Assembly (NCBI RefSeq): GCF_965641715.1
Contig: NZ_OZ282455.1
Strand: one strand, 5' to 3'
Length of the DNA: 64,000 nucleotides
Source of the DNA: Escherichia coli
Lineage (GTDB): Bacteria > Pseudomonadota > Gammaproteobacteria > Enterobacterales > Enterobacteriaceae
Within the stretch, counting starts at the first letter, position 1, and each line of letters opens with the position of its first letter. A model generated the notes under the pieces. The model was not told the DNA's origin and did not search any database. It worked only from the letters and a program-made list of their open reading frames with translations. Of this stretch, positions 3,933 through 25,503 are shown one piece after another. The position numbers and the translations under genes are program-made.

Positions 3933-4270
3933 GGAAGTCGCCGCCGGCTCCGCTTTACCCGGCCATGCAGAGCATGGCCTTGTGGTTTTCAGTTATGTGG
4001 CCTCAGCGTCGTGTGCGGGCTGTGCCGTGCCTCCATCTTAGCCGGGCTGGCGTTGATGCAAGGGTACGCTTCGCCGCTGCGGTCACCCGGTCCCTCCTTC
4101 CCGTCTGCCGTGATTTTCCGGTCGTTCACCCGCTCAGATTTCGCGGTCTCACCCTCCAACTCCCGCCAGCCGTGTGCGTCAGGCTGCGGCTTCCCTTGCG
4201 CCCCTGCATCCCCGCCTTATCGCCCGGCTTTTCTGGAGGCACGGCACCGCCCGGTGTCGCGGAATATGTG
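3933..4270. repeat. dispersed leading-region repeat, family A copy 1 (candidate ssDNA promoter / ssi element)
   Basis: About 340 nt nearly identical to 10878..11218; GC-rich, non-coding, ends about 20 nt before klcA start. Confidence 0.7.
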
Positions 4271-4289
4271 AACAACGGAGGAAAACATC

Positions 4290-4715
4290 ATGCAATATGC
4301 GAAACCTGTCACTCTGAACGTTGAAGAGTGCGACCGTTTGTCTTTTCTGCCTTACCTGTTTGGCCAGGATTTTCTGTATGCCGAAGCGTCTGTATACGCG
4401 CTGGCGAAACAAATGATGCCGGAATATGAAGGCGGATTCTGGCACTTCATCCGCCTGCCGGACGGTGGCGGTTACATGATGCCGGACGGTGACCGTTTCC
4501 ACATGGTGAACGGTGCAAACTGGTTTGACCGTACCGTGAGTGCTGATGCCGCAGGCATCATCCTTACCTCCCTTGTGATTAACCGCCAGTTGTGGCTGTA
4601 CCACGACAGCGGGGATGCAGGACTGACCCAGCTTTACCGGATGCGCGATGCGCAGTTGTGGCGTCACATCGAATTTCACCCTGAATGCAACGCGATTTAC
4701 GCAGCACTGGACTGA
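4290..4715 (+). CDS. klcA: KlcA/ArdB-family antirestriction protein
   Basis: 141 aa; RLSFLP, GGFWHF and C-terminal AIYAALD motifs matching my memory of KlcA/ArdB. Confidence 0.8.
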
Positions 4716-5184: not shown

Positions 5185-5372
5185 ATATCAGCACAGAAAC
5201 CCGCGAAATTCTGCGCAATTACAAAGCCGTGATTAATGCGCGGCGTCGTGAAATGGGGCAGAAACCGCTCACCACTGCGCAGATTGTTGATGAAATCTGC
5301 GATTTTGTGGCGAATCAGCAGGCGGTTTTCCTCGGTGGTCACTATATCCTTCAGGGCAGCAGAAACAGGTGA
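5181..5372 (+). CDS. hypothetical protein (63 aa)
   Basis: Track ORF; start overlaps upstream stop (ATGTCATGA). Confidence 0.4.
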   Translation: MNISTETREILRNYKAVINARRREMGQKPLTTAQIVDEICDFVANQQAVFLGGHYILQGSRNR

Positions 5373-5411
5373 TACAGGGCAGGCGGTAGAGGCCGCCTGT
5401 CAGCCCGCGCG

Positions 5412-6125
5412 AAAACCCCTGGCAGGCTGACGCCTGCCGGAAATGCGGGGTGCAGCGCCTGCGGCGCTGCCGGCCCGGCTTTCCGGTCAGAAGGTAGTGT
5501 ATGGCTGTATGCAGGGAACAGGTGTGATATTCCGTGACACTGTCACTGTTTCTGGCTGTCTTTTATTGCGCCCACTTCGGCTCCCGGCTGCCTGGCGGCA
5601 TCCGGTCGTCAGGCCCGACTCCGACAGGCAGCTGCTGGCGCACCCGCCAGTCTCCGCCGAACCCGCTGGCGCGGTTTCGGGCTGCCGCTACGGTCCGATG
5701 CGTGAAAACCCGGCTTGCAGCGACCGTTCCGGTCGCGCCGCCCCTGTCGCGCCGTGACCTGCGCTCCCTGCACACCTGACGGTGTGTGAGGAAACTGCGC
5801 CTGATGGCGCAGCAGTCTTCCCTCCTGCCGCCACCCCTGCGGCCTGTTTCCCGCTGTGGACTTTCCGGGGGGCAGACGTAACCCCCTCCCGTTCCATCTG
5901 TCCAGGGTGAGATGCACCGGCCACAAAATTTTTAGCCATGAACCCGGCTAAAAATTTTGCGTCCGCCCCCGGACAGCTGTCCCGTGAGGCGGTAAACGGG
6001 CCCCCATCGGAAAGGTCCACTGCGGGGAGAAACCCCTGTGAAGTGGACGGCAGGAGGAGCTTTCGCTCCTCTGAAGGGGCACATGAACGTCCCGTCGCCG
6101 GTATCCGGTTTATCTCACATCTTTC
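5412..6125. repeat. dispersed leading-region repeat, family B copy 1 (candidate ssDNA promoter / Frpo-ssi-like element)
   Basis: About 700 nt highly similar to 11782..12445; 3' part (about 5745..6125) also shared with 14961..15315; contains AT-rich palindrome CAAAATTTTTAGCC-N9-GGCTAAAAATTTTG; ends at ssb SD. Confidence 0.7.
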
Positions 6126-6140
6126 AGTCAGGAGGTTCTT

Positions 6141-6668
6141 ATGAGTGCACGTGGTATCAACAAGGTCATCCTCGTCGGGCGTCTGGGCAATGATCCGGAA
6201 GTCCGTTACATCCCCAACGGGGGCGCAGTGGCAAACCTGCAGGTGGCCACATCAGAAAGCTGGCGTGACAAACAGACGGGGGAGATGCGGGAGCAGACGG
6301 AATGGCACCGCGTGGTGCTGTTCGGCAAGCTCGCGGAAGTGGCAGGTGAATATCTGTGCAAGGGTGCGCAGGTCTACATCGAAGGTCAGCTTCGCACCCG
6401 TAGCTGGGAAGATAACGGTATCACCCGTTACGTCACTGAAATTCTTGTTAAGACCACGGGCACCATGCAGATGCTGGGGAGTGCACCACAGCAGAACGCT
6501 CAGGCGCAACCGAAGCCTCAGCAGAATGGGCAGCCACAGAGTGCTGACGCGACGAAAAAAGGTGGCGCGAAAACGAAAGGCCGTGGACGTAAGGCCGCGC
6601 AGCCCGAGCCTCAGCCGCAACCGCCGGAGGGGGAGGATTACGGGTTTTCAGACGATATCCCGTTCTGA
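6141..6668 (+). CDS. ssb: single-stranded DNA-binding protein (plasmid SSB)
   Basis: 175 aa; OB-fold N-terminus ([16 protein letters not shown]...), Gln/Pro-rich linker, acidic tail DDIPF. Confidence 0.95.
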
Positions 6669-9030: not shown

Positions 9031-9465
9031 ATGAAAACTGAACTGACCCTGAATGCCCTGCAGTCCATGAACGCACAGGAATATGAAGATATCCGTGCTG
9101 CGGGAAGCGATATGCGCCGTAATCTCACTCACGAGGTGATGCGTGAAGTGGACGCACCGGCTAACTGGATGATGAATGGCGAGTATGGCAGTGAGTTCGG
9201 GGGCTTTTTCCCCGTCCAGGTTCGTTTCACGCCAGCCCACGAACGTTTCCACCTGGCATTATGTTCGCCGGGAGACGTCTCTCAGCTCTGGATGCTGGTT
9301 CTGGTGAATTGTGGTGGACAGCCTTTCGCCGTCGTTCAGGTGCAACATATCTTCACGCCTGTCGCTATCAGTCACACGCTGGCGCTTGCCGCGACACTTG
9401 ATGCGCAGGGGTACAGTGTTAACGACATCATCCATATCCTGATGGCAGAAGGAGGTCAGGCATGA
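9031..9465 (+). CDS. psiB: plasmid SOS inhibition protein PsiB
   Basis: About 144 aa; [27 protein letters not shown]... matches PsiB as I recall it. Confidence 0.95.
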
Positions 9466-10181
9466 GCGCACGTTCACGGGCACTGATCCCCCTCAGCGCA
9501 GAGCAACAGGCCGCCATGCAGGCTGTGGCTGTCACCGAACAACGTCGTCGTCAGGGACGCACACTTTCAGCATGGCCTTATGCCAGCGCTTTCTTTCGCT
9601 GCCTGAATGGCAGTCGCCGGATTTCGCTGACCGATCTCCGCTTTTTTGCTCCTGCGCTGACGAAGGAGGAATTTCATGGCAACCGTCTCCTGTGGCTGGC
9701 TGCCGTGGATAAACTGATTGAAAGTTTTGGTGAAGTCTGTGTTCTTCCCCTGCCATCCGATGCGGGGCATCGTCTGTTCCCGTCCGTTCCTTTTCGTGAA
9801 GGTGAGCGGCGTCGTCAGAAAACCACGCTGACAGAGCAGAAATACAGCCGCCAGCGGGAACGTGAGGCAGAACGACGGGAACTGGAATACCAGACATGTT
9901 TTGCTCAGGCGCAGATTGACCTTGCGTTTCATACTCCCGCCACGGTCGGAAGCTGGTTGTCCCGCTGGTCTGGTGTTGTTGAGGAGCATGATCTGGAAAC
10001 GATTTTCTGGGGGTGGTGCGGGCGTTTTCCATCACTGTCATCATTTGACCGGTTTTTCTGGCAGGAGGAACCACTCTGGCGGCTGATTTTTGAAGCCGGT
10101 GAGGCCGGTCGTGGTGCACCGGTACAGGTACGTGCACTTGAGCAGTGGATGATCCCGAACAAGCTGGAGAACGCAATATGA
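9462..10181 (+). CDS. psiA: plasmid SOS inhibition protein PsiA
   Basis: 239 aa, start overlaps psiB stop; matches PsiA as I recall it. Confidence 0.9.
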
Positions 10182-10877: not shown

Positions 10878-11218
10878 GGAAGTCGCCGGCGGCTCCGCTT
10901 TTACCCGGCCATGCGGGGCATGGCCTTGTGGGTTTTCAGCTCTGTGGCCTCAGCGTCGTGTGCGGGCTGTGCCGTGCCTCCATCTTAGCCGGGCTGGCAG
11001 GGATGCAAGGGTACGCTTCGCCGCTGCGGTCACCCGGTCCCTCCTTCCCGTCTGCCGTGATTTTCCGGTCGTTCACCCGCTCAGATTTCGCGGTCTCACC
11101 CTCCAACTCCCGCCAGCCGTGTGCGTCAGGCTGCGGCTTCCCTTGCGCCCTGTGCATCCCCGCCTTATCGCCCGGCTTTTATGGAGGCACGGCACCGCCC
11201 GGTGCCGCAGAACATGTG
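10878..11218. repeat. dispersed leading-region repeat, family A copy 2 (candidate ssDNA promoter / ssi element)
   Basis: Near-identical to 3933..4270; ends about 18 nt before ardA start. Confidence 0.7.
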
Positions 11219-11236
11219 ACTATGGAGGATTCGGGA

Positions 11237-11737
11237 ATGTCTGTTGTTGCACCTGCTGTATACGTTGGAACCTGGCACAAATACAACTGTGGAAGTATCG
11301 CCGGACGCTGGTTTGACCTGACCACGTTTGATGATGAGCGCGACTTTTTCGCCGCCTGCCGTGCTCTTCACCAGGATGAAGCCGATCCTGAACTGATGTT
11401 TCAGGATTATGAGGGATTCCCGGGGAATATGGCCTCTGAATGCCATATCAACTGGGCCTGGGTTGAAGGCTTCCGCCGGGCACGGGATGAAGGCTGCGAA
11501 GAGGCTTATCGTCTCTGGGTGGATGATACCGGTGAGACGGATTTTGACACCTTCCGCGATGCCTGGTGGGGCGAGGCTGACAGTGAGTAGGCTTTTGCGG
11601 TTGAGTTCGTCAGTGATACCGGCCTGCTGGCTGACGTGCCGGAGACGGTGGCGCTCTATTTTGACTATGAGGCGTATGCGCGGGATTTATTCCTGGACTC
11701 CTTCACCTTTATTGACGGTCATGTGTTCCGTCGGTGA
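11237..11737 (+). pseudogene. ardA: ArdA antirestriction gene interrupted by in-frame TAG at codon 118
   Basis: [20 protein letters not shown]... matches ArdA; reading frame stops at TAG 11588..11590 (…GEADSE*) and resumes in frame with the ArdA C-terminus (AFAVEFVSDTGLLADVPETVALYFDYEAYARD…RR*) to TGA 11735..11737. Confidence 0.85.
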
Positions 11738-11781
11738 TTTACTCCCCCGCTCCGGCGGGGGTATGGCCTGCCAGGCCGCCG

Positions 11782-12445
11782 GAAAACCCTGGCAGGCTTA
11801 CGCCTGCCTGAAATGCAGGAGGGCCGCGCCTGCGGCGCTGCCCTTCCTGCCCGTCATGGTGTGAGGCATTTTTCTGTTATGTCGTTTCTGTTGTTCTGAT
11901 TTCCGGAGGCGGGGACACCTTCGGCTCCCGGCTGCCTGGCGGCATCCGGTCGTCAGGCCCGACTCCGACAGGCAGCTGCTGGCGCACCCGCCAGTCTCCG
12001 CCGAACCCGCTGGCGCGGTTTCGGGCTGCCGCTACGGTCCGATGTCTGAAAAACCAGGCTTGCAGCGACCGTTCCGGTCGCGCCGCCCCTGTCGCGCCGG
12101 AAACGGCGCTCCCTGCACACCTGACGGTGTGTAAGGCCACTGCGCCTGATGGCGCAGTCAACCCTTCCGCCGCCACCCCTGCGGCCTGTTTCCCGCTGTG
12201 GACTTTCCGGGGGCTGGAGTAACCACATCCCGTTTCAGCAGTCTAGGGGAAGATATACCGTCCACAAAATTTTTAGCCATAAACCCGGCAAAAAATTTTG
12301 CGTCCGCCCCCGGACAGCTGCCCCGTGACGTGGTGACGGACGCCCCATCGGAAAGGTCCACTGCGGGGAGAAACCCCGAAGAAGTGGACGGCAGAAGGGG
12401 CTTTCGCCCCTCCGGGGAGCAACCGGTCGGCCCGGCGACCTGATT
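11782..12445. repeat. dispersed leading-region repeat, family B copy 2
   Basis: Similar to 5412..6125 over about 660 nt; ends at SD of ORF 12466. Confidence 0.7.
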
Positions 12446-12465
12446 CAGCAGAAGGAGACGTTTTC

Positions 12466-12900
12466 ATGACAGTCAGCAGCACGATTTCCGTTTTTTGCCG
12501 CGACGGGGTGTTCCGTACCGTTTACTGCCACCTGCACGGGGAGCCGACCTGGAACGGTCGCATCCTGCATACCCACTATGCCACCGGTCAGCAGGCCGAA
12601 GCCCTGGTTGAACACGGTGATATCCGTTGCCTCGGTCCCCGTTGCGACAAACCCGCCGGGCATACGCTTCAGAACCCGGTGGACGGTGTGACGGCTTATT
12701 ACGGACGTGACAGTGGTTTCCGGATGGACAGTGAGGCGCGTGAGTACCGTTCTTTCAGGGAGGCTATTGCCACTGAAAGCACTGAAGAGGTGCGCTTCCA
12801 TTATGTGTTCATCGACGGCTACTGGAAGGTGATGTACCGCACGCCGGAAGGCTGGAAGATGAAAGCGCTCGCGCTGGCACTGCGTCGCTGTCCGAAATGA
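12466..12900 (+). CDS. hypothetical protein (144 aa)
   Basis: Track ORF with GAAGGAGA SD; immediately downstream of family B repeat; hairpin after stop. Confidence 0.6.
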   Translation: MTVSSTISVFCRDGVFRTVYCHLHGEPTWNGRILHTHYATGQQAEALVEHGDIRCLGPRCDKPAGHTLQNPVDGVTAYYGRDSGFRMDSEAREYRSFREAIATESTEEVRFHYVFIDGYWKVMYRTPEGWKMKALALALRRCPK

Positions 12901-13324: not shown

Positions 13325-14251
13325 GTGAGTAAGAAGAAAACCACCACGACGCCCACGCCGCATGATGCCGCGTTCCGGTCGTTCCTGGCGAATCCCGACG
13401 TCGCCAGAGATTTTCTGGAACTGCATCTTCCGGCGGAGTACCGGCAGTTGTGCGACCTGTCCACGCTGAAGCTGGAACCCGCCACCTTTGTTGAGCCGGA
13501 CCTGCATCAGTACGCCAGCGATATCCTCTGGAGTGTGAAAACCACCGGGGGTGAAGATGGCTATGTTTATACGCTCATCGAGCACCAGAGCACCGAAAAT
13601 CTGTACATGCCTTTCCGCATGTTACGTTACAGTGTGGCGGCGATGCAGAGACATCTGGAGCAGCACAAAACGTTGCCACTGGTCATTCCGGTGCTGTTCT
13701 ATCACGGTGAGCGCAGCCCGTACCCGTACAGCATGAACTGGCTGGACTGTTTTGAGAATCCGGCGCTTGCGGCTAAAATATACACAAAGCCGTTTCCGCT
13801 GGTTGATATCACTGTCGTTGATGACAATGAAATCATGAACCATCGCCGGATGGCCGCACTGACGCTGCTGATGAAGCATATCCGCCATCGTGACATGATG
13901 GAGCTGCTGGACAAACTCCCGCAGGTCATGGTGGAAATTTCAGACGAGCAGGTGCGTGTTCTGATTCATTACATCGTTAACGCAGGGGACTCTGTATCAC
14001 CGGAATTTATGCGGGCGCTGGCTGAGCGTCTGCCGCAGCATGAGGATAAACTGATGACTATCGCAGAACGTCTTGAGCAAAAAGGTCGCCAGGAAGGCAG
14101 GATGGAAGGACGCATGGAAGGACGCATGGAAGGAGCGCTTGAAAAAGCCCTGGCTATTGCGTGCCAGCTTCAGAAAATGGGGATGACGCCGGAGCAGATT
14201 AAGCAGGCTACCGGACTTTCCGATGACGAACTGAAGAAAATCACTCACTGA
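13325..14251 (+). CDS. Rpn-family recombination-promoting nuclease (YhgA-like, PD-(D/E)xK)
   Basis: Track ORF 13268..14251; GTG at 13325 after CAGGAGG; YhgA-like N-terminal region; C-terminal tandem GRMEGRMEGRMEG repeat (about 14096..14134). Confidence 0.75.
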   Translation: MSKKKTTTTPTPHDAAFRSFLANPDVARDFLELHLPAEYRQLCDLSTLKLEPATFVEPDLHQYASDILWSVKTTGGEDGYVYTLIEHQSTENLYMPFRMLRYSVAAMQRHLEQHKTLPLVIPVLFYHGERSPYPYSMNWLDCFENPALAAKIYTKPFPLVDITVVDDNEIMNHRRMAALTLLMKHIRHRDMMELLDKLPQVMVEISDEQVRVLIHYIVNAGDSVSPEFMRALAERLPQHEDKLMTIAERLEQKGRQEGRMEGRMEGRMEGALEKALAIACQLQKMGMTPEQIKQATGLSDDELKKITH

Positions 14252-14312: not shown

Positions 14313-14471
14313 ATGACGATTGCAGAACGTCTTATTCAAAAAGGCGCACTTGAAGTGGCGCGGGAAATAGCCTGCCGGCTGCGGGATATGGGCTGGACGC
14401 CGGAACGGATTCAGGAGGCAACCGGACTTTCCGGTGAAGAACTGAAAAAGCTGTTTCCTGATGAGCAGTAG
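14313..14471 (+). CDS. small protein homologous to the Rpn C-terminal tail (RpnS/YpaA-like)
   Basis: 52 aa (MTIAERLIQKGALEVAREIACRL…) aligns with the last about 60 aa of the upstream Rpn protein but lacks the GRMEG repeats. Confidence 0.5.
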   Translation: MTIAERLIQKGALEVAREIACRLRDMGWTPERIQEATGLSGEELKKLFPDEQ

Positions 14472-14501: not shown

Positions 14502-14753
14502 TCACACATCCTCTGCCGTTTCCCCCAGTTCATTTTCCAGTCGCCTGATGATATCTGCCTTACGCATCCCCTGCATGTGAGGCAGCAGGTCACGGACTGA
14601 AAGTGCCTGGGTGGTCCTCCAGACGGTGACGTCCACCTGTTCCGCATTTTCCCAGGCGTGCCATGTTCTCTGCGTCACGCCAAATTCTCTGGCCGCTTTT
14701 TCGCGTGACCAGAGCATGCTTTTTCGCCAGATTCGCAGTTCCCAGCCGGTCAT
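14502..14753 (-). CDS. small HTH DNA-binding protein (XRE/Cro-like candidate regulator)
   Basis: 83 aa; HTH-like segment SREKAAREFGVTQRTWHAWEN; AAGGTG SD; divergent from leading genes. Confidence 0.6.
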   Translation of the reverse strand: MTGWELRIWRKSMLWSREKAAREFGVTQRTWHAWENAEQVDVTVWRTTQALSVRDLLPHMQGMRKADIIRRLENELGETAEDV

Positions 14754-14767
14754 AAAACACCTTTAAA

Positions 14768-14788
14768 AAAGTGAAAAAACTTCACTTT
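14768..14788. promoter_or_regulatory. operator-like palindrome AAAGTGAA-N5-TTCACTTT (site 1)
   Basis: Perfect 8-bp inverted repeat about 15 nt upstream of the HTH gene start. Confidence 0.5.
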
Positions 14789-14834
14789 ATTTTATCATCA
14801 TAATCACCAAATTAACGCGATAAATAAGTGTGAA

Positions 14835-14855
14835 AAAGTGAAGAAATTTCACTTT
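14835..14855. promoter_or_regulatory. operator-like palindrome AAAGTGAA-N5-TTCACTTT (site 2)
   Basis: Second identical palindrome 67 bp from site 1 in an AT-rich divergent promoter region. Confidence 0.5.
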
Positions 14856-14960
14856 TTTTGCTTGTAAATGTCGTGCGGTTTTCTCTGTTTTCACCTGTGC
14901 GGGAGTGGTGTGCCAGTGACCACCACATGCCATTGTTGTGCCGTCGTTTTTCTTCAGTCG

Positions 14961-15315
14961 CGCCGTATGCGGCGCTCCCTGCACACCTTACGGTGTGTAA
15001 GGCCACTGCGCCTGATGGCGCAGCTGTCTCTGCCTGTCTGCCGCCGCACTGCGGCCTGTTCTCCGCAGACGGACTTTCCGGGGGTACATACATGACCACA
15101 TCCCGTTTCAGTCGTCCAGGGGAGAGATGTACCAGCCACAAAACTTTTTGCCGCAGGCGTCAAAAACTTTTGCGTCTGCCCCCGGACAACTGCCCCGTGA
15201 CGTGGTGAGCGTCCCCCGTCGGAAAGGTCCACTGCGGGGAAATCCCCGAAGACCCGGACGGCAGAAGGAGCTTCGCTCCTCCGGGAAATGACCTGGCTGA
15301 CCCGGCAGTCGTGAC
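14961..15315. repeat. dispersed leading-region repeat, family B copy 3 (3' unit only)
   Basis: Matches only the 3' about 355 nt of copies 1 and 2; ends at SD of ORF 15330. Confidence 0.65.
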
Positions 15316-15329
15316 GATGAGGAGACAAT

Positions 15330-16181
15330 GTGATGAATCAGACTTTACCCACTGCTGACCTGAATACTGCCGGCACGACAGATGTTATTCCGTCTGTGGC
15401 TATCGACCGCATCATCGCGCAGCGTAACGAAGGTATTGCACTGTTCATGCAGGCGATGGAATGCCTGGCGACAGCGCGCAAGATTCTGCTCGATGCGTCA
15501 GGTGATATTTTTCTTTACGGGTTTGAAGACTGCGTGACTGATTCCGTTCGTCGCATAGATAAACCGGAAGAAGCGAAAAGGAATATCACCCGTCTTGCCG
15601 ACCGGAAAATCTGGGATCGCCTGATGACAGATACGGGCATGTACACCTTCATGAGTTCATGCCAGCGTGATGAGTGGAACAGCCAGCTGATGAGCGACAC
15701 CTGTCCTGAAATCACCCTGGACAATGTACTGGCAACATTCCGCCATCTGAATGCCTGCAAGATGCAGACATTTGAACAGGGACTGATTGATGTCTACCGG
15801 AAATTGTCATGGGATTACAGAACCAATAATCCCTGCCGTCTGGGTAAGAAAATCATTATTGAAAACCTGCTGTACCGCTGGAGTAACGGGCGTGTGACGC
15901 TGGACTGCAGCGGACGGGAGGCACTGGATGACCTGGTACGTCCGTTTTATCTGCTGGAGGGGCGCAACGTTCCTGACTTCAGGAACAGTATCGGGGCGCA
16001 GTATGGTGAATTTCTCGGGAACGGCGACAATGTCGGTAAGCTGTTAGAAGGGGAATATTTTACGGTGCGTGGCTACCAGAAAGGGACCGTACACATTGTC
16101 TTTAAGCGTTCTGACCTTGTTGAAAAACTGAATGATATTATTGCACGGCATTATCCAGGTGCATTGCCGCCACGAGTCTGA
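15330..16181 (+). CDS. hypothetical protein (283 aa), oriT-proximal leading gene
   Basis: Track ORF with GAGGAGA SD; hairpin plus T-run after stop. Confidence 0.6.
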   Translation: MMNQTLPTADLNTAGTTDVIPSVAIDRIIAQRNEGIALFMQAMECLATARKILLDASGDIFLYGFEDCVTDSVRRIDKPEEAKRNITRLADRKIWDRLMTDTGMYTFMSSCQRDEWNSQLMSDTCPEITLDNVLATFRHLNACKMQTFEQGLIDVYRKLSWDYRTNNPCRLGKKIIIENLLYRWSNGRVTLDCSGREALDDLVRPFYLLEGRNVPDFRNSIGAQYGEFLGNGDNVGKLLEGEYFTVRGYQKGTVHIVFKRSDLVEKLNDIIARHYPGALPPRV

Positions 16182-16266: not shown

Positions 16267-16602
16267 TCAATTGTTGTTCATATCGATGCCATCTTTCCTG
16301 CCTGAATCTGTCTTTTTAGGTGCTGTTTTAGAGGAAGAACGGCGGGATGGTTTTTTCGATTCTGCTTCCCGAATAATGTCACGAAGTGCCTTCTCTCCTA
16401 CTTCATACCCTGCATTTTTGAGCGTGTCACGAACATCTGCCAGTGTATAACCCTTTGTCCTTACCAGGACAATAATGTCATCACGAATGGCATCAAGAAA
16501 ATCACGCAATGTTTTCCGTTGAGCGGTGAGATCTGGCAATTCCGATAAAGCAGCTTTTGCCAGCTGGATGTCATCATCTGAGTAAAATTTTTTAGAAGCC
16601 AT
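16267..16602 (-). CDS. hypothetical small protein with basic C-terminal tail (111 aa)
   Basis: Track ORF 16267..16608 (GTG); ATG at 16602 with GGAGAG SD; tail SKKPSRRSSSKTAPKKTDSGRKDG suggests nucleic-acid binding. Confidence 0.5.
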   Translation of the reverse strand: MASKKFYSDDDIQLAKAALSELPDLTAQRKTLRDFLDAIRDDIIVLVRTKGYTLADVRDTLKNAGYEVGEKALRDIIREAESKKPSRRSSSKTAPKKTDSGRKDGIDMNNN

Positions 16603-16660: not shown

Positions 16661-16791
16661 GGCAGGGCTGCGCCCTGCCTCTGCCGTCTGCATAAGACTA
16701 TGATGCACAAAAATAACAGGCTATAATGGCCTGAAAAACGGGACAGGATGTGCAATTGTAATACCGTCACACGCGACGCTATTACAATTGC
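16661..16791 (-). other. oriT: oriT (origin of transfer) with predicted nic site on the - strand
   Basis: 12-bp inverted repeat GCAATTGTAATA / TATTACAATTGC (16752..16763, 16780..16791); on the - strand the repeat is followed by ACATCCTG then TCCC, matching the IncP-type nick consensus ATCCTG|Y, which places the nick between + coordinates 16744/16743, 8 nt from the repeat; second palindrome GGCAGGGCTGCGCCCTGCC at 16661..16679; directly upstream of nikA. Confidence 0.7.
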
Positions 16792-16835: not shown

Positions 16836-17168
16836 GTGAGTGATAGTGCGGTAAGAAAGAAAAGTGAGGTACGGCAAAAGACAGTTGTCAGGACACTCAG
16901 ATTCTCTCCTGTTGAGGATGAAACCATCAGGAAAAAAGCTGAAGATTCCGGACTTACTGTATCTGCTTACATCCGAAATGCAGCACTGAATAAGCGAATT
17001 AACTCCCGTACAGATGATGCTTTTCTGAAGGAGTTAATGAGACTGGGAAGGATGCAGAAGCATCTGTTTGTTCAGGGAAAAAGAACCGGTGACAAGGAAT
17101 ACGCAGAAGTGCTTGTTGCCATAACCGAACTTACAAATACATTGCGTAAACAGTTAATGGAAGGTTGA
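16836..17168 (+). CDS. nikA: relaxosome accessory protein NikA
   Basis: Track ORF 16788..17168; GTG at 16836 after AAGGAG gives 110 aa; adjacent to oriT and nikB. Confidence 0.85.
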   Translation: MSDSAVRKKSEVRQKTVVRTLRFSPVEDETIRKKAEDSGLTVSAYIRNAALNKRINSRTDDAFLKELMRLGRMQKHLFVQGKRTGDKEYAEVLVAITELTNTLRKQLMEG

Positions 17169-17178
17169 GGATTCTCCG

Positions 17179-19878
17179 GTGAATGCAGTCATTCCAAAAA
17201 AGAGAAGGGACGGCAAGTCTTCGTTCGAAGACCTGGTATCCTACGTCTCTGTCCGGGATGACATGACCGATGAGGAACTGGATTTATCTTCTTCTTCGCA
17301 GGCTGAACAACCGCACCGAAGCCGTTTCAGTCGCCTTGTTGATTATGCGACACGTCTTCGAAATGAGTCATTCGTGGCGCTGGTTGATGTCATGAAGGAC
17401 GGCTGCGAATGGGTCAACTTTTATGGTGTCACCTGCTTTCATAACTGTACTTCTCTTGAAACTGCCGCTGCAGATATGGAGTACATTGCCCGGCAGGCAC
17501 ACTATGCAAAAGATGACACTGATCCTGTTTTTCACTACATTCTTTCCTGGCAGTCACATGAAAGCCCGCGTCCGGAACAGATTTATGACAGTGTACGTCA
17601 TACGCTGAAATCACTCGGCCTTGCCGACCATCAGTATGTCTCTGCCGTGCATACTGATACAGATAATCTGCACGTCCATGTGGCTGTTAACCGGGTACAC
17701 CCTGAAACGGGTTATCTGAACCGGTTATCCTGGAGTCAGGAAAAACTCAGTCGTGCCTGCCGTGAGCTTGAACTGAAGCATGGTTTTGCTCCGGATAACG
17801 GTTGCTGGGTCCATGCACCGGGAAATCGTATCGTTCGCAAAACCGCCGTTGAACGTGATCGCCAGAACGCGTGGACACGCGGGAAAAAACAAACTTTTCG
17901 CGAGTATGTCGCGCAGACAGCGGTCGCTGGTTTACGCAGTGAACCTGTAAATGACTGGTTATCCCTGCATCGTCGTCTTGCGGAAGATGGTCTGTACCTG
18001 TCTCAGATGGACGGAAAATTTCTGGTGATGGATGGCTGGGATCGCAACAGGGAAGGTGTACAGCTTGACTCGTTTGGTCCCTCCTGGTGTGCAGAAAAAC
18101 TCATGAAAAAAATGGGTGACTACACGCCAGTACCAAAAGACATTTTCAGCCAGGTGGAAGCACCAGGACGCTATAATCCGCACTTCATTGCCGCTGATGT
18201 TCGCCCGGAAAAAATCGCTGAAACAGAAAGTCTGCAGCAGTATGCCTGTCGTCATCTTGGAGAACGTCTGCCGGAAATGGCACGGGAAGGACGGCTGGAA
18301 AACTGCCAAGCTATTCACCGCACACTGGCTGAAGCGGGATTATGGATGCGTGTTCAGCATGGTCACCTGGTTATCTGTGACGGTTATGATCATAACCAGA
18401 CTCCCGTTCGTGCTGACAGCGTATGGTCGCTGCTGACGCTCGACAATGTGAATCAACTCGATGGTGGCTGGCAGCCTGTACCAACAGATATTTTCCGCCA
18501 GGTTACGCCAACAGAACGCTTCCGTGGTCGTCGTATGGAGAGCTGTCCTGCGACCGATAAAGAATGGCACCGTATGCGTACAGGCACGGGGCCGCAGGGG
18601 GCTATCAAACGCGAACTGTTTTCTGACAAAGAAAGTCTGTGGGGATACAGCATCAGCCATTGTAGCCCTCAGATTGAAGAAATGATCACACAGGGTGAGT
18701 TTACCTGGCAGCGTTGTCATGAGCTGTTTGCACAACAGGGACTGATGCTACAGAAACAACATCACGGGCTTGTTGTCGTTGATGCCTTTAATCATGAGCA
18801 AACGCCGGTGAAGGCCAGCAGCATTCATCCTGATCTGACACTGGGGCGTGCAGAGCCACAGGCCGGACCTTTTGTGAGTGCCCCAGCAGATTTGTTTGAC
18901 AGGGTGCAACCTGAAAGTCGCTATAACCCGGAGCTGGCTGTCAGTGACAGGTACGGGGTCAGCAGTAAACGTGACCCAATGCTGCGCCGGCAGCGACGTA
19001 AAGCCAGAGCTGAGGCCCGTGCTGACCTGCGTGCCCGCTATCTGGCATGGCGTGAACAATGGCGTAAACCAGATCTGCGTTATGGGGAACGTTGTCGGGA
19101 AATTCATCAGGCATGCCGTCTGCGGAAGTCACACATTCGTGCGCAGTACGATGATCCGGCATTACGTAAGCTGCATTATCACATTGCAGAAGTTCAGCGA
19201 ATGCAGGCATTGATCAGGCTGAAAGAAGACATCAGGGATGAGCGACAGAAACTTATTGCTGACGGGAAGTGGTATCCACCCTCTTACCGTCAGTGGGTCG
19301 AAACTCAGGCTGCTCAGGGAGACAGGGCTGCTGTATCGCAGCTGAGAGGCTGGGATTATCGCGATCGCCGTAAAGACAGGTCACGCACAACGACGACAGA
19401 CCGCTGTGTCGTGCTTTGTGAACCGGGCGGAACGCCGGTATACGGTAATACCGGTGATCTCGAGGCCCGTCTGCAGAAGAACGGGAGTGTTCGTTTCCGT
19501 GACCGTCGGACGGGAGAGTTTGTCTGTACGGATTATGGTGACAGGGTTGTTTTCCGTAATCACCATGACCGCAATGCGCTGGCAGATAAACTGGATTTGA
19601 TTGCACCGGTATTATTCGGGCGTGATCCTCGCATGGGTTTTGAACCAGAAGGAAACGACAAACAATTTAACCAGGTCTTTGCTGAAATGGTTGCCTGGCA
19701 TAATGTGACAGGCCGTACCGGTCACGAAGACTACAGGATTACGCGACCGGACGTGGATCATCACCGTGAAGGAAGTGAACGCTACTACCGCGATTATATC
19801 GCGGCGAACAGCAACGATGACGCATCACTGCCTCCGCCGGAGCAGGATAAACGCTGGGAACCGCCTTCTCCAGGTTAA
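17179..19878 (+). CDS. nikB: relaxase NikB (MOBP family)
   Basis: 899 aa; histidine triad HTDTDNLHVHVAVN typical of relaxases. Confidence 0.95.
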   Translation: MNAVIPKKRRDGKSSFEDLVSYVSVRDDMTDEELDLSSSSQAEQPHRSRFSRLVDYATRLRNESFVALVDVMKDGCEWVNFYGVTCFHNCTSLETAAADMEYIARQAHYAKDDTDPVFHYILSWQSHESPRPEQIYDSVRHTLKSLGLADHQYVSAVHTDTDNLHVHVAVNRVHPETGYLNRLSWSQEKLSRACRELELKHGFAPDNGCWVHAPGNRIVRKTAVERDRQNAWTRGKKQTFREYVAQTAVAGLRSEPVNDWLSLHRRLAEDGLYLSQMDGKFLVMDGWDRNREGVQLDSFGPSWCAEKLMKKMGDYTPVPKDIFSQVEAPGRYNPHFIAADVRPEKIAETESLQQYACRHLGERLPEMAREGRLENCQAIHRTLAEAGLWMRVQHGHLVICDGYDHNQTPVRADSVWSLLTLDNVNQLDGGWQPVPTDIFRQVTPTERFRGRRMESCPATDKEWHRMRTGTGPQGAIKRELFSDKESLWGYSISHCSPQIEEMITQGEFTWQRCHELFAQQGLMLQKQHHGLVVVDAFNHEQTPVKASSIHPDLTLGRAEPQAGPFVSAPADLFDRVQPESRYNPELAVSDRYGVSSKRDPMLRRQRRKARAEARADLRARYLAWREQWRKPDLRYGERCREIHQACRLRKSHIRAQYDDPALRKLHYHIAEVQRMQALIRLKEDIRDERQKLIADGKWYPPSYRQWVETQAAQGDRAAVSQLRGWDYRDRRKDRSRTTTTDRCVVLCEPGGTPVYGNTGDLEARLQKNGSVRFRDRRTGEFVCTDYGDRVVFRNHHDRNALADKLDLIAPVLFGRDPRMGFEPEGNDKQFNQVFAEMVAWHNVTGRTGHEDYRITRPDVDHHREGSERYYRDYIAANSNDDASLPPPEQDKRWEPPSPG

Positions 19879-24496: not shown

Positions 24497-24648
24497 GACA
24501 AAGTCTCCATTTCTGGAATTTAAATCAAACGGAAAGGTTAAAAATTTATTTGCAGGCGATAAGAGCTAACCAGAGGAATTAGCCGTGCGATAAAAGGATT
24601 GTTGCAGATACGAAAGTCGTTAGAATAGCTGCGGGCGCTTGAGGCTGT

Positions 24649-24933
24649 ATGCCGAAAGCGTTTTGTGGACGGTATACAGCAGAAAGCCCCTGGAGATTTT
24701 TTTATCAATCAACCAAGGGCTCTACTGTAATGCCTAGACAACATTATAGTAGCCCGATAACCGCCGTAAGGCAATGGAGGGGCTATGATGCCACAGCGAA
24801 CGTTTTTAATGATGTTAATCGTCATCTGTGTGACGATTCTGTGTTTTGTCTGGATGGTGAGGGATTCGCTTTGCGTACTCCGGCTCCAGCAGGGAAACAC
24901 AGTGCTTGTGGCAACGTTAGCCTACGAAGTTAA
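24649..24933 (+). CDS. pndC: PndC-like (Mok-equivalent) overlapping reading frame
   Basis: Track ORF overlapping pndA in another frame, as in hok/mok loci; true start probably internal. Confidence 0.4.
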   Translation: MPKAFCGRYTAESPWRFFYQSTKGSTVMPRQHYSSPITAVRQWRGYDATANVFNDVNRHLCDDSVFCLDGEGFALRTPAPAGKHSACGNVSLRS

Positions 24934-25263: not shown

Positions 25264-25416
25264 CGGATTTTCTCTCTGTATTTATGGGTAGTTATCGAAC
25301 TGAATGTGCCAGTTTTTTCAGGAGACGGCAAAGTTGAGATGATTGGTTCTGATTCAGAGCATGAGTTTCCTCGGTGTGACGGGCATGTCGGGCGGATTTT
25401 GAGAAACAACAGATGT

Positions 25417-25503
25417 AAAAAAACCGACTGGTGAGGTCGGTTTTTTTACTGTTCCGTTACAGAGTGGGTGGCCCTGACCGGAGGAAATCTCTTTTCAACT
25501 AAC
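25417..25503 (-). ncRNA. candidate trans-acting antitoxin sRNA (about 87 nt)
   Basis: - strand promoter TTGCTA-17 nt-TATTAT (about 25510..25540); 5' 24 nt complementary to 25667..25690; terminator A7-CCGAC-loop-GTCGG-T7 at 25417..25447. Confidence 0.45.

Follow-up and report, generated by a model that had tools for sequence, protein, structure and literature searches.

Single-strand promoters of conjugative plasmids

Transient transcription from a single DNA strand is on record for elements of three plasmids, ColIb-P9, F and pESBL. On ColIb-P9 these are ssi1–3, on which Bates et al. in 1999 and Nasim et al. in 2004 reportedly carried out reporter and zygotic-burst type work, with sequences near-identical to the ones treated here; on F they are Frpo1 (ssiD) and Frpo2, which are said to go back to Masai and Arai in 1997. 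In papers of 2025–2026 the elements of the ColIb-P9 ssi1–3 type are named class 1, or 'ssp1', single-strand promoters.

In IncI plasmids, three operons are transcribed from ssi3 to ssi1 (PMC10104558). For the IncI1 plasmid pESBL, an RNA-seq study (NAR 2025, PMC12672017) describes genes in six leading-region operons that are up about 500-fold at most 15 min after mating, with start sites mapped by 5' RACE, and assigns ssi1–3 and Frpo to class 1; for pESBL and F the same study also describes class 2 single-strand promoters (before klcA/ardB and ardA) and class 3 ones (before M.EcoGIX). In F, deletion of Frpo1 or Frpo2 abolishes the early production of the downstream proteins (Couturier et al. 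2023, PMC9849209). An anti-CRISPR driven by Frpo protects the plasmid only if it is placed in the leading region on the strand that is transferred (PMC11541004), and transcripts of single-strand promoters have been found to prime conversion in vivo (bioRxiv 2026.01.09.698686). That IncI plasmids carry three imperfect Frpo-like repeats, and that these recombine with one another, was already described by Venturini et al. 2013.

A leading region of the IncI complex

The window, i.e. the whole 64,000-nt stretch of Escherichia coli DNA analysed here, is matched at 100% by pRKI3099a (IncIγ/K1, MOBP, MPF_I), from whose annotation we took the gene names and coordinates. The order ssb...psiB-psiA...ardA...nikA-nikB is the same in ColIb-P9 and in the window, and gene order and match together identify the window as the leading region of an IncI-complex plasmid. 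On the + strand there follow one another a DNA methylase gene (1701–2384), a klcA-like antirestriction gene (4290–4715) with a DUF1380 gene and a small ORF ending at 5372 behind it, ssb (6141–6668), which opens the ssi3 operon (ssb, DUF905, parB-like, psiB, psiA), psiB (9031–9465), psiA (9462–10181), ardA (11237–11737), a 144-aa ORF downstream of ssi2 (12466–12900; named PndC in CP082621, and elsewhere at times PndC or ccgAII), a DUF4942 gene downstream of ssi1 (15330–16181, start at 15330 or 15333), nikA (16836–17168) and nikB (17179–19878).

An earlier, sequence-only reading of this DNA had placed all leading genes on the + strand, which is true of most of them; three are on the - strand (14502–14753, 14787–14984 and 16267–16602). 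The first of these is a helix-turn-helix gene, and between it and ssi1 lies an AT-rich stretch (14760–14870) in which the inverted motifs GTGAAAAA/TTTCAC are repeated, 14766–14792 resembles 14833–14859 and one sigma-70-like site is found at 14771–14798; its appearance is that of a conventional promoter/operator of double-stranded DNA. Near the end of an Rpn-family gene and the next small ORF there is also a 109-nt direct repeat with 75% identity (14130–14238 and 14341–14449, spacing 211 nt). Rfam matches beyond trbABC were a sok antitoxin RNA (24633–24790, + strand, 134 bits) and AgrB (25415–25502, - strand, 55 bits), which are consistent with a hok/sok-type (pnd) post-segregational killing locus.

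Probable nick site and transferred strand

Relaxases of the IncP and IncI types nick at the consensus YATCCTG, directly before a further Y. Upstream of nikA the - strand reads …GGTATTACAATTGCACATCCTGTCCCG… (16739–16752 and the neighbouring inverted repeat), where CACATCCTG followed by TCCCG (16739–16752, - strand) adjoins a long inverted repeat. Judged against this consensus, we take this motif to be the IncI/IncP-type nick region of oriT, with the nick at about 16744/16743 on the - strand, the strand to which it had been assigned before. The distance from here to ssi1 is 1460 nt (16743 to 15283), and ssi1 starts at 1459 in the ColIb-P9 leading-region record AJ238399, an agreement that hints at independent support for the nick position.

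Since the nick motif is on the - strand, this strand is the transferred one and the template for the + strand genes. It would enter the recipient 5' end first, toward lower coordinates, and the + strand genes would point back toward oriT. On the entering strand ssi1, ssi2 and ssi3 lie about 1.5, 4.3 and 10.7 kb after the nick.

Three repeats correspond to ssi3, ssi2 and ssi1

Self-BLAST recovered the three direct repeats (family B) at the places where the sequence-only reading had seen them. Copy 1 (5395–6071) aligns with copy 2 (11766–12412) at 83% over 681 nt (E=0), and the 3' part of both, about 330 nt, matches about 14957–15285 at 80–81% (E 1e-72 for copy 1), the third copy consisting of the 3' unit only, as had been noted. 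Their description as GC-rich was also borne out (62–64% G+C, against 51% for the whole window and 57% for the leading region). A stretch of 761 nt around copy 1 matched more than 5000 plasmid records, mainly conjugative plasmids of Escherichia, Klebsiella and Salmonella.

Two points of the original description need amending. Copy 1 had been treated as a single 714-nt repeat and is in fact a composite of a 5' companion module, an ssi unit and a unique leader. The copies had also been described as ending just before a Shine-Dalgarno sequence, and their outer ends at 6125, 12445 and 15315 do so (AGGAGG at 6128, AAGGAG at 12452, GAGGAG at 15320), but the similarity between copies stops earlier, at about 6071–6074, 12412–12414 and 15283. 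The remaining 45–65 nt are copy-specific leaders, the first of which (6075–6140, + strand) holds the Shine-Dalgarno sequence of ssb and has its equivalents at 12415–12465 and 15284–15329.

As references we used the 'known Frpo and ssi sequences' of Samuel et al. 2024 (Supplementary file 4). All three units match elements of ColIb-P9 over their full length and lie on the - strand: the unit before ssb (5744–6074) is 99.4% identical to ssi3 over all 331 nt and is the equivalent of F Frpo2; the one between ardA and the 144-aa ORF (12089–12414) is 99.4% identical to ssi2 over all 326 nt; and the one nearest oriT, before the DUF4942 gene (14955–15283), is 99.1% identical to ssi1 over all 329 nt. F Frpo1 and Frpo2 align with the units around the apex of the hairpin described below. 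The proposal that these are elements of the Frpo/ssi type is thus supported by homology, by the fold of the - strand and by the strand logic.

We consider it very probable (roughly 0.93) that the shared unit of about 330 nt represents ssi3, ssi2 and ssi1 of the IncI1 complex, that is, class 1 single-strand DNA promoters homologous to Frpo1 and Frpo2. The ssi1–3 of the window are already known elements, described since 1999 and intensively studied since 2023. For them we observed directly how closely they match the published elements, where and on which strand they lie, how they fold, that the two strands differ in this and that paired positions covary; that they act as transient promoters and as priming sites may be ascribed to them by analogy, from the literature on near-identical sequences.

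A long hairpin conserved on the transferred strand

On the - strand each copy folds, as anticipated, into one long imperfect hairpin (z -9.3 to -11.3), accompanied by three or four small side hairpins per unit. The main hairpin of ssi3 spans 5824–6054 on this strand, with equivalents at about 12166–12395 in ssi2 and 15037–15265 in ssi1. Folded as single-stranded DNA, the - strand reaches -103.7 kcal/mol in ssi3 (z -11.3), -98.6 in ssi2 (z -9.9) and -100.8 in ssi1 (z -9.3), and no shuffle folded as well as any of the three. The + strand (-88.1, -90.1 and -82.2 kcal/mol) is weaker by 15.6, 8.5 and 18.6 kcal/mol, respectively, as would be expected if G·T pairs had been selected on the transferred strand. 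Rfam at gathering thresholds gave nothing at the repeats, its sok and AgrB-like matches lying elsewhere, which is what a DNA element is expected to give.

The apex of the ssi3 hairpin is an AT-rich palindrome, CAAAATTTTTAGCC/GGCTAAAAATTTTG (5924–5959; exact pattern match, arms 5924–5937 and 5946–5959, loop 5938–5945), which is unique in the window and was reached by 0 of 100 shuffles. Its presence in copy 1 had been recognised correctly, with the spacer, however, given as 9 nt instead of the 8 nt found here (ATGAACCC). It forms the apical stem in every fold, the equivalents being 12265–12300 in ssi2 and 15139–15172 in ssi1.

To derive a consensus fold, we combined the three copies of the window with two other IncI variants (n=5), the main hairpin occupying alignment columns 21–254. 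The consensus structure has 118 pairs, in the main hairpin and four small side hairpins, and 96.6% of the cells are paired. Compensatory changes, which support the long hairpin, occur at 13 of the 118 pairs, a number reached by none of 500 shuffles, with slid controls giving 1–4. The irregularities of the hairpin are conserved as well: an 8-nt apex loop, a 10-nt bulge on the 3' arm, a 7x9 internal loop (columns 75–81/196–204) and several G·T pairs.

Repeats of this kind might instead be mainly recombination substrates, boundaries of mobile leading-region modules or leftovers of duplication, with a hairpin that has no function of its own. Venturini et al. 2013 described an IncI plasmid that is without a 9.7-kb segment and keeps one hybrid repeat, and suggested that the segment may be a mobile element. 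Similarly, the Salmonella plasmid CP082621.1 (14166–15692) has a single hybrid unit, ssi2-like in its 5' part on the transferred strand and ssi3-like in its 3' part, which joins DUF1380-hyp directly to the 144-aa ORF and is thus a deletion of ssb-psiBA-ardA by recombination of ssi3 with ssi2. The repeats do explain the recurrent deletions of the ssb-ardA segment, but recombination is a consequence of their similarity and leaves the structure unexplained. The hairpin is kept by compensatory changes, the transferred strand folds better than its complement, and homologues have been shown by deletion and with reporters to function as promoters, so that recombination as the main role seems to us highly improbable next to the reading as single-strand promoters.

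Candidate promoter boxes

The AT-rich palindrome had been thought to resemble a stem bearing -35 and -10 boxes. It is the apex of the hairpin, and no canonical -35/-10 pair is present; it probably acts as a UP-like or -35-proximal element and not as the carrier of both hexamers. A sigma-70 consensus scan found no promoter inside any of the units on either strand, and a linear scan of eight family members on their transferred strand, which asked for a minimum of 8 matching positions out of 12 and for A2 and T6 in the -10, found no site shared among them.

A pattern search on the transferred strand gave three weak candidate hexamer pairs. One of them (candidate C, 5899–5926, - strand, TTGTGG-N16-TGGACA) follows the AT tract immediately, on the 3' arm, with putative equivalents, weak in their match to the consensus, at 12240–12267 in ssi2 (TTGTGG-N16-TAGACT) and 15113–15141 in ssi1, both on the - strand. 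The arrangement TTGnnn-N15-17-T(G/A)GAC recurs in Frpo-like sequences of F, Serratia, an insect metagenome and Salmonella, and it would fit the 'UP, -35, -10' description of Samuel et al. (PMC11541004). The A and the final T of the ssi2 -10, TAGACT, face mismatches, and the spacer holds the 10-nt bulge, which makes for an unusual geometry. An alternative to it (candidate A, 5991–6019, - strand, TGGACC-N17-TTTACC) is on the 5' arm, where its -10 overlaps the conserved 7x9 internal loop; its positional counterpart in F is TTGAGA-N17-CATCAC. The third (candidate B, GGGACA-N18-CAAAAT, transferred strand) ends in the palindrome. We infer the exact -35 and -10 hexamers of the ssi units from such pattern matches, and all three pairs are to be read as putative.

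For F, the old ssiD entry D90178 and the reference NC_002483 show several differences within the Frpo1 core (e.g. GGGGCATACTGCC vs GGGGCATCACTGCC), and these alter the apparent quality of a candidate -10 box.

Proposed mode of action

In the model that we favour, NikB would nick the - strand at oriT (about 16743) and this strand would enter the recipient with its 5' end first, ssi1, ssi2 and ssi3 arriving about 1.5, 4.3 and 10.7 kb after the nick. Each unit, while single-stranded, would fold into an imperfect hairpin of about 230 nt, the stem of which, carrying the conserved bulge, the internal loop and G·T mismatches, may mimic duplex promoter DNA. The sigma-70 RNA polymerase of the host could then start at the hairpin and copy the incoming strand toward oriT, giving a transient burst of ssb-psiB-psiA from ssi3, of the operon of the 144-aa ORF from ssi2 and of the DUF4942 gene from ssi1. 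The same transcripts might also prime the synthesis of the complementary strand, and once the complement is made the hairpin would be ironed out and the promoter switched off. Elements of this kind would let anti-SOS, single-strand-binding and anti-restriction functions be expressed within minutes of entry, before the double-stranded state is reached, and would be central to the establishment of resistance plasmids in new hosts.

Another explanation is that the elements are chiefly single-strand initiation sites, i.e. priming sites for complementary-strand synthesis, with gene expression as a by-product. Frpo originally came to light under the name ssiD, RNA made from it serves as a primer for DNA synthesis in vitro, and early conversion near ssp1/Frpo is rifampicin-sensitive in vivo (bioRxiv 2026.01.09.698686). 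Every unit of the window, however, immediately precedes an operon that has a Shine-Dalgarno sequence; on pESBL the genes downstream are induced up to about 500-fold (PMC12672017), and the loss of early protein production upon Frpo deletion in F (PMC9849209) argues in the same direction. Since one element can fill both roles, the difference is one of emphasis and does not make a true alternative, and we give scarcely any weight to priming as the chief role, retaining the reading as promoters of early expression.

A conserved companion module upstream of ssi3 and ssi2

In their 5' half, copies 1 and 2 carry a companion module (5412–5743 and 11782–12088, no strand assigned) that lies outside the published ssi coordinates and of which we found no description in the literature accessible to us. 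In copy 1 it comprises three short GC hairpins, which closely follow the stop codon of the preceding gene, a variable T/C-rich stretch, a GC-rich core of 137 nt (5575–5711) and a box (5712–5742) that is invariant in F and IncI plasmids. The core of copy 2 (11919–12055) differs from that of copy 1 at only 3 of the 137 nt. Among the sampled IncI and IncF plasmid matches, including Klebsiella IncF plasmids, in which it also precedes an Frpo-type region, the core is at least 98.5% identical, and is thus more conserved than the ssi units themselves (80–87% between paralogues). We discarded the idea that the 5' half is a second Frpo-like hairpin, because its fold consists of several short hairpins, with z-scores of only -2 to -3, and shows no strand bias.

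The module follows the klcA operon and ardA and, in an IncF plasmid, hok, in each case with a co-directional operon upstream that reads toward the ssi unit; ssi1, without an operon of this kind upstream, lacks it. From this distribution an insulating or terminating role might be proposed. The module may possibly be an insulator that keeps transcription (possibly in a Rho-dependent way) or DNA synthesis arriving from the upstream operon from opening up the ssi hairpin, or it might stabilise the upstream mRNA at its 3' end. That it forms a separate functional element coupled to class 1 single-strand promoters is a tentative proposal, to which we would give rather low odds.

Annotated ORFs over the repeats

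The repeats are non-coding, in keeping with the sequence-only reading, and the possibility that they encode small proteins can be set aside as barely credible, since the ORFs of 64–124 aa that run over them on both strands, some annotated as CDS in CP088867, in many other matches and in an IncF plasmid, are contradicted by many 1- and 2-nt indels among the paralogues, by the lack of any frame open across all copies and by the different frames of the ORFs annotated on the same 137-nt core in an IncI and an IncF record, while high G+C (62–66%) suffices for long chance ORFs. In many GenBank and RefSeq records the ssi units and the 5' module are nevertheless overlaid with a CDS labelled 'hypothetical protein' (e.g. 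5443–5757 of the window, + strand), in all likelihood a spurious ORF of non-coding, GC-rich DNA in almost every instance. Correcting this mislabelling of the units is where the practical value of the present annotation lies.

A second repeat family

The window holds a further pair of repeats (family A, 98% identity over 220 nt) at 3984–4271 and 10931–11219, immediately before the klcA-like gene (4290) and ardA (11237), respectively. Here too the - strand gives a long hairpin, at -81.6 and -86.6 kcal/mol with z of -4.4 and -5.6, respectively. To judge by where it lies, the pair is the counterpart of the class 2 single-strand promoters known from pESBL and F.

Comparison with known systems

The result for the window is confirmatory, the three units being the textbook ssi1–3 of IncI plasmids. 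On ColIb-P9, R64 and pESBL, ssi1–3 occupy the same three positions (before ssb, after ardA and before the DUF4942 gene) and are like the units of the window in their hairpin and in their orientation relative to oriT and nikAB. Compared with ColIb-P9 there are 2–3 substitutions per unit, one of which turns TGGACT into TAGACT in ssi2.

Class 2 and class 3 single-strand promoters resemble these units in their location in the leading region, in the strand logic and in the long hairpin on the transferred strand; unlike them, they are without sequence similarity to ssi1–3 and form a separate family with a different set of downstream genes.

Frpo1 (ssiD) and Frpo2 of F share with the window an apical core made up of the AT-rich palindrome, the GTCCGGGGG/CCCCTGGAC helix and the bulge, and also the invariant upstream box GGCTTGCAGCGACCGTTCCGGTCGCGCC, the place before ssb and the orientation on the transferred strand. 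The similarity of ssiD to the window is confined to a 116-nt core (74%, BLAST), whereas the basal parts of the F hairpins and the upstream module are unlike those of the window in sequence, a different, C/T-rich sequence taking the place of the 137-nt core in F. The two plasmid types also differ in copy number, with two elements in F and three in IncI.
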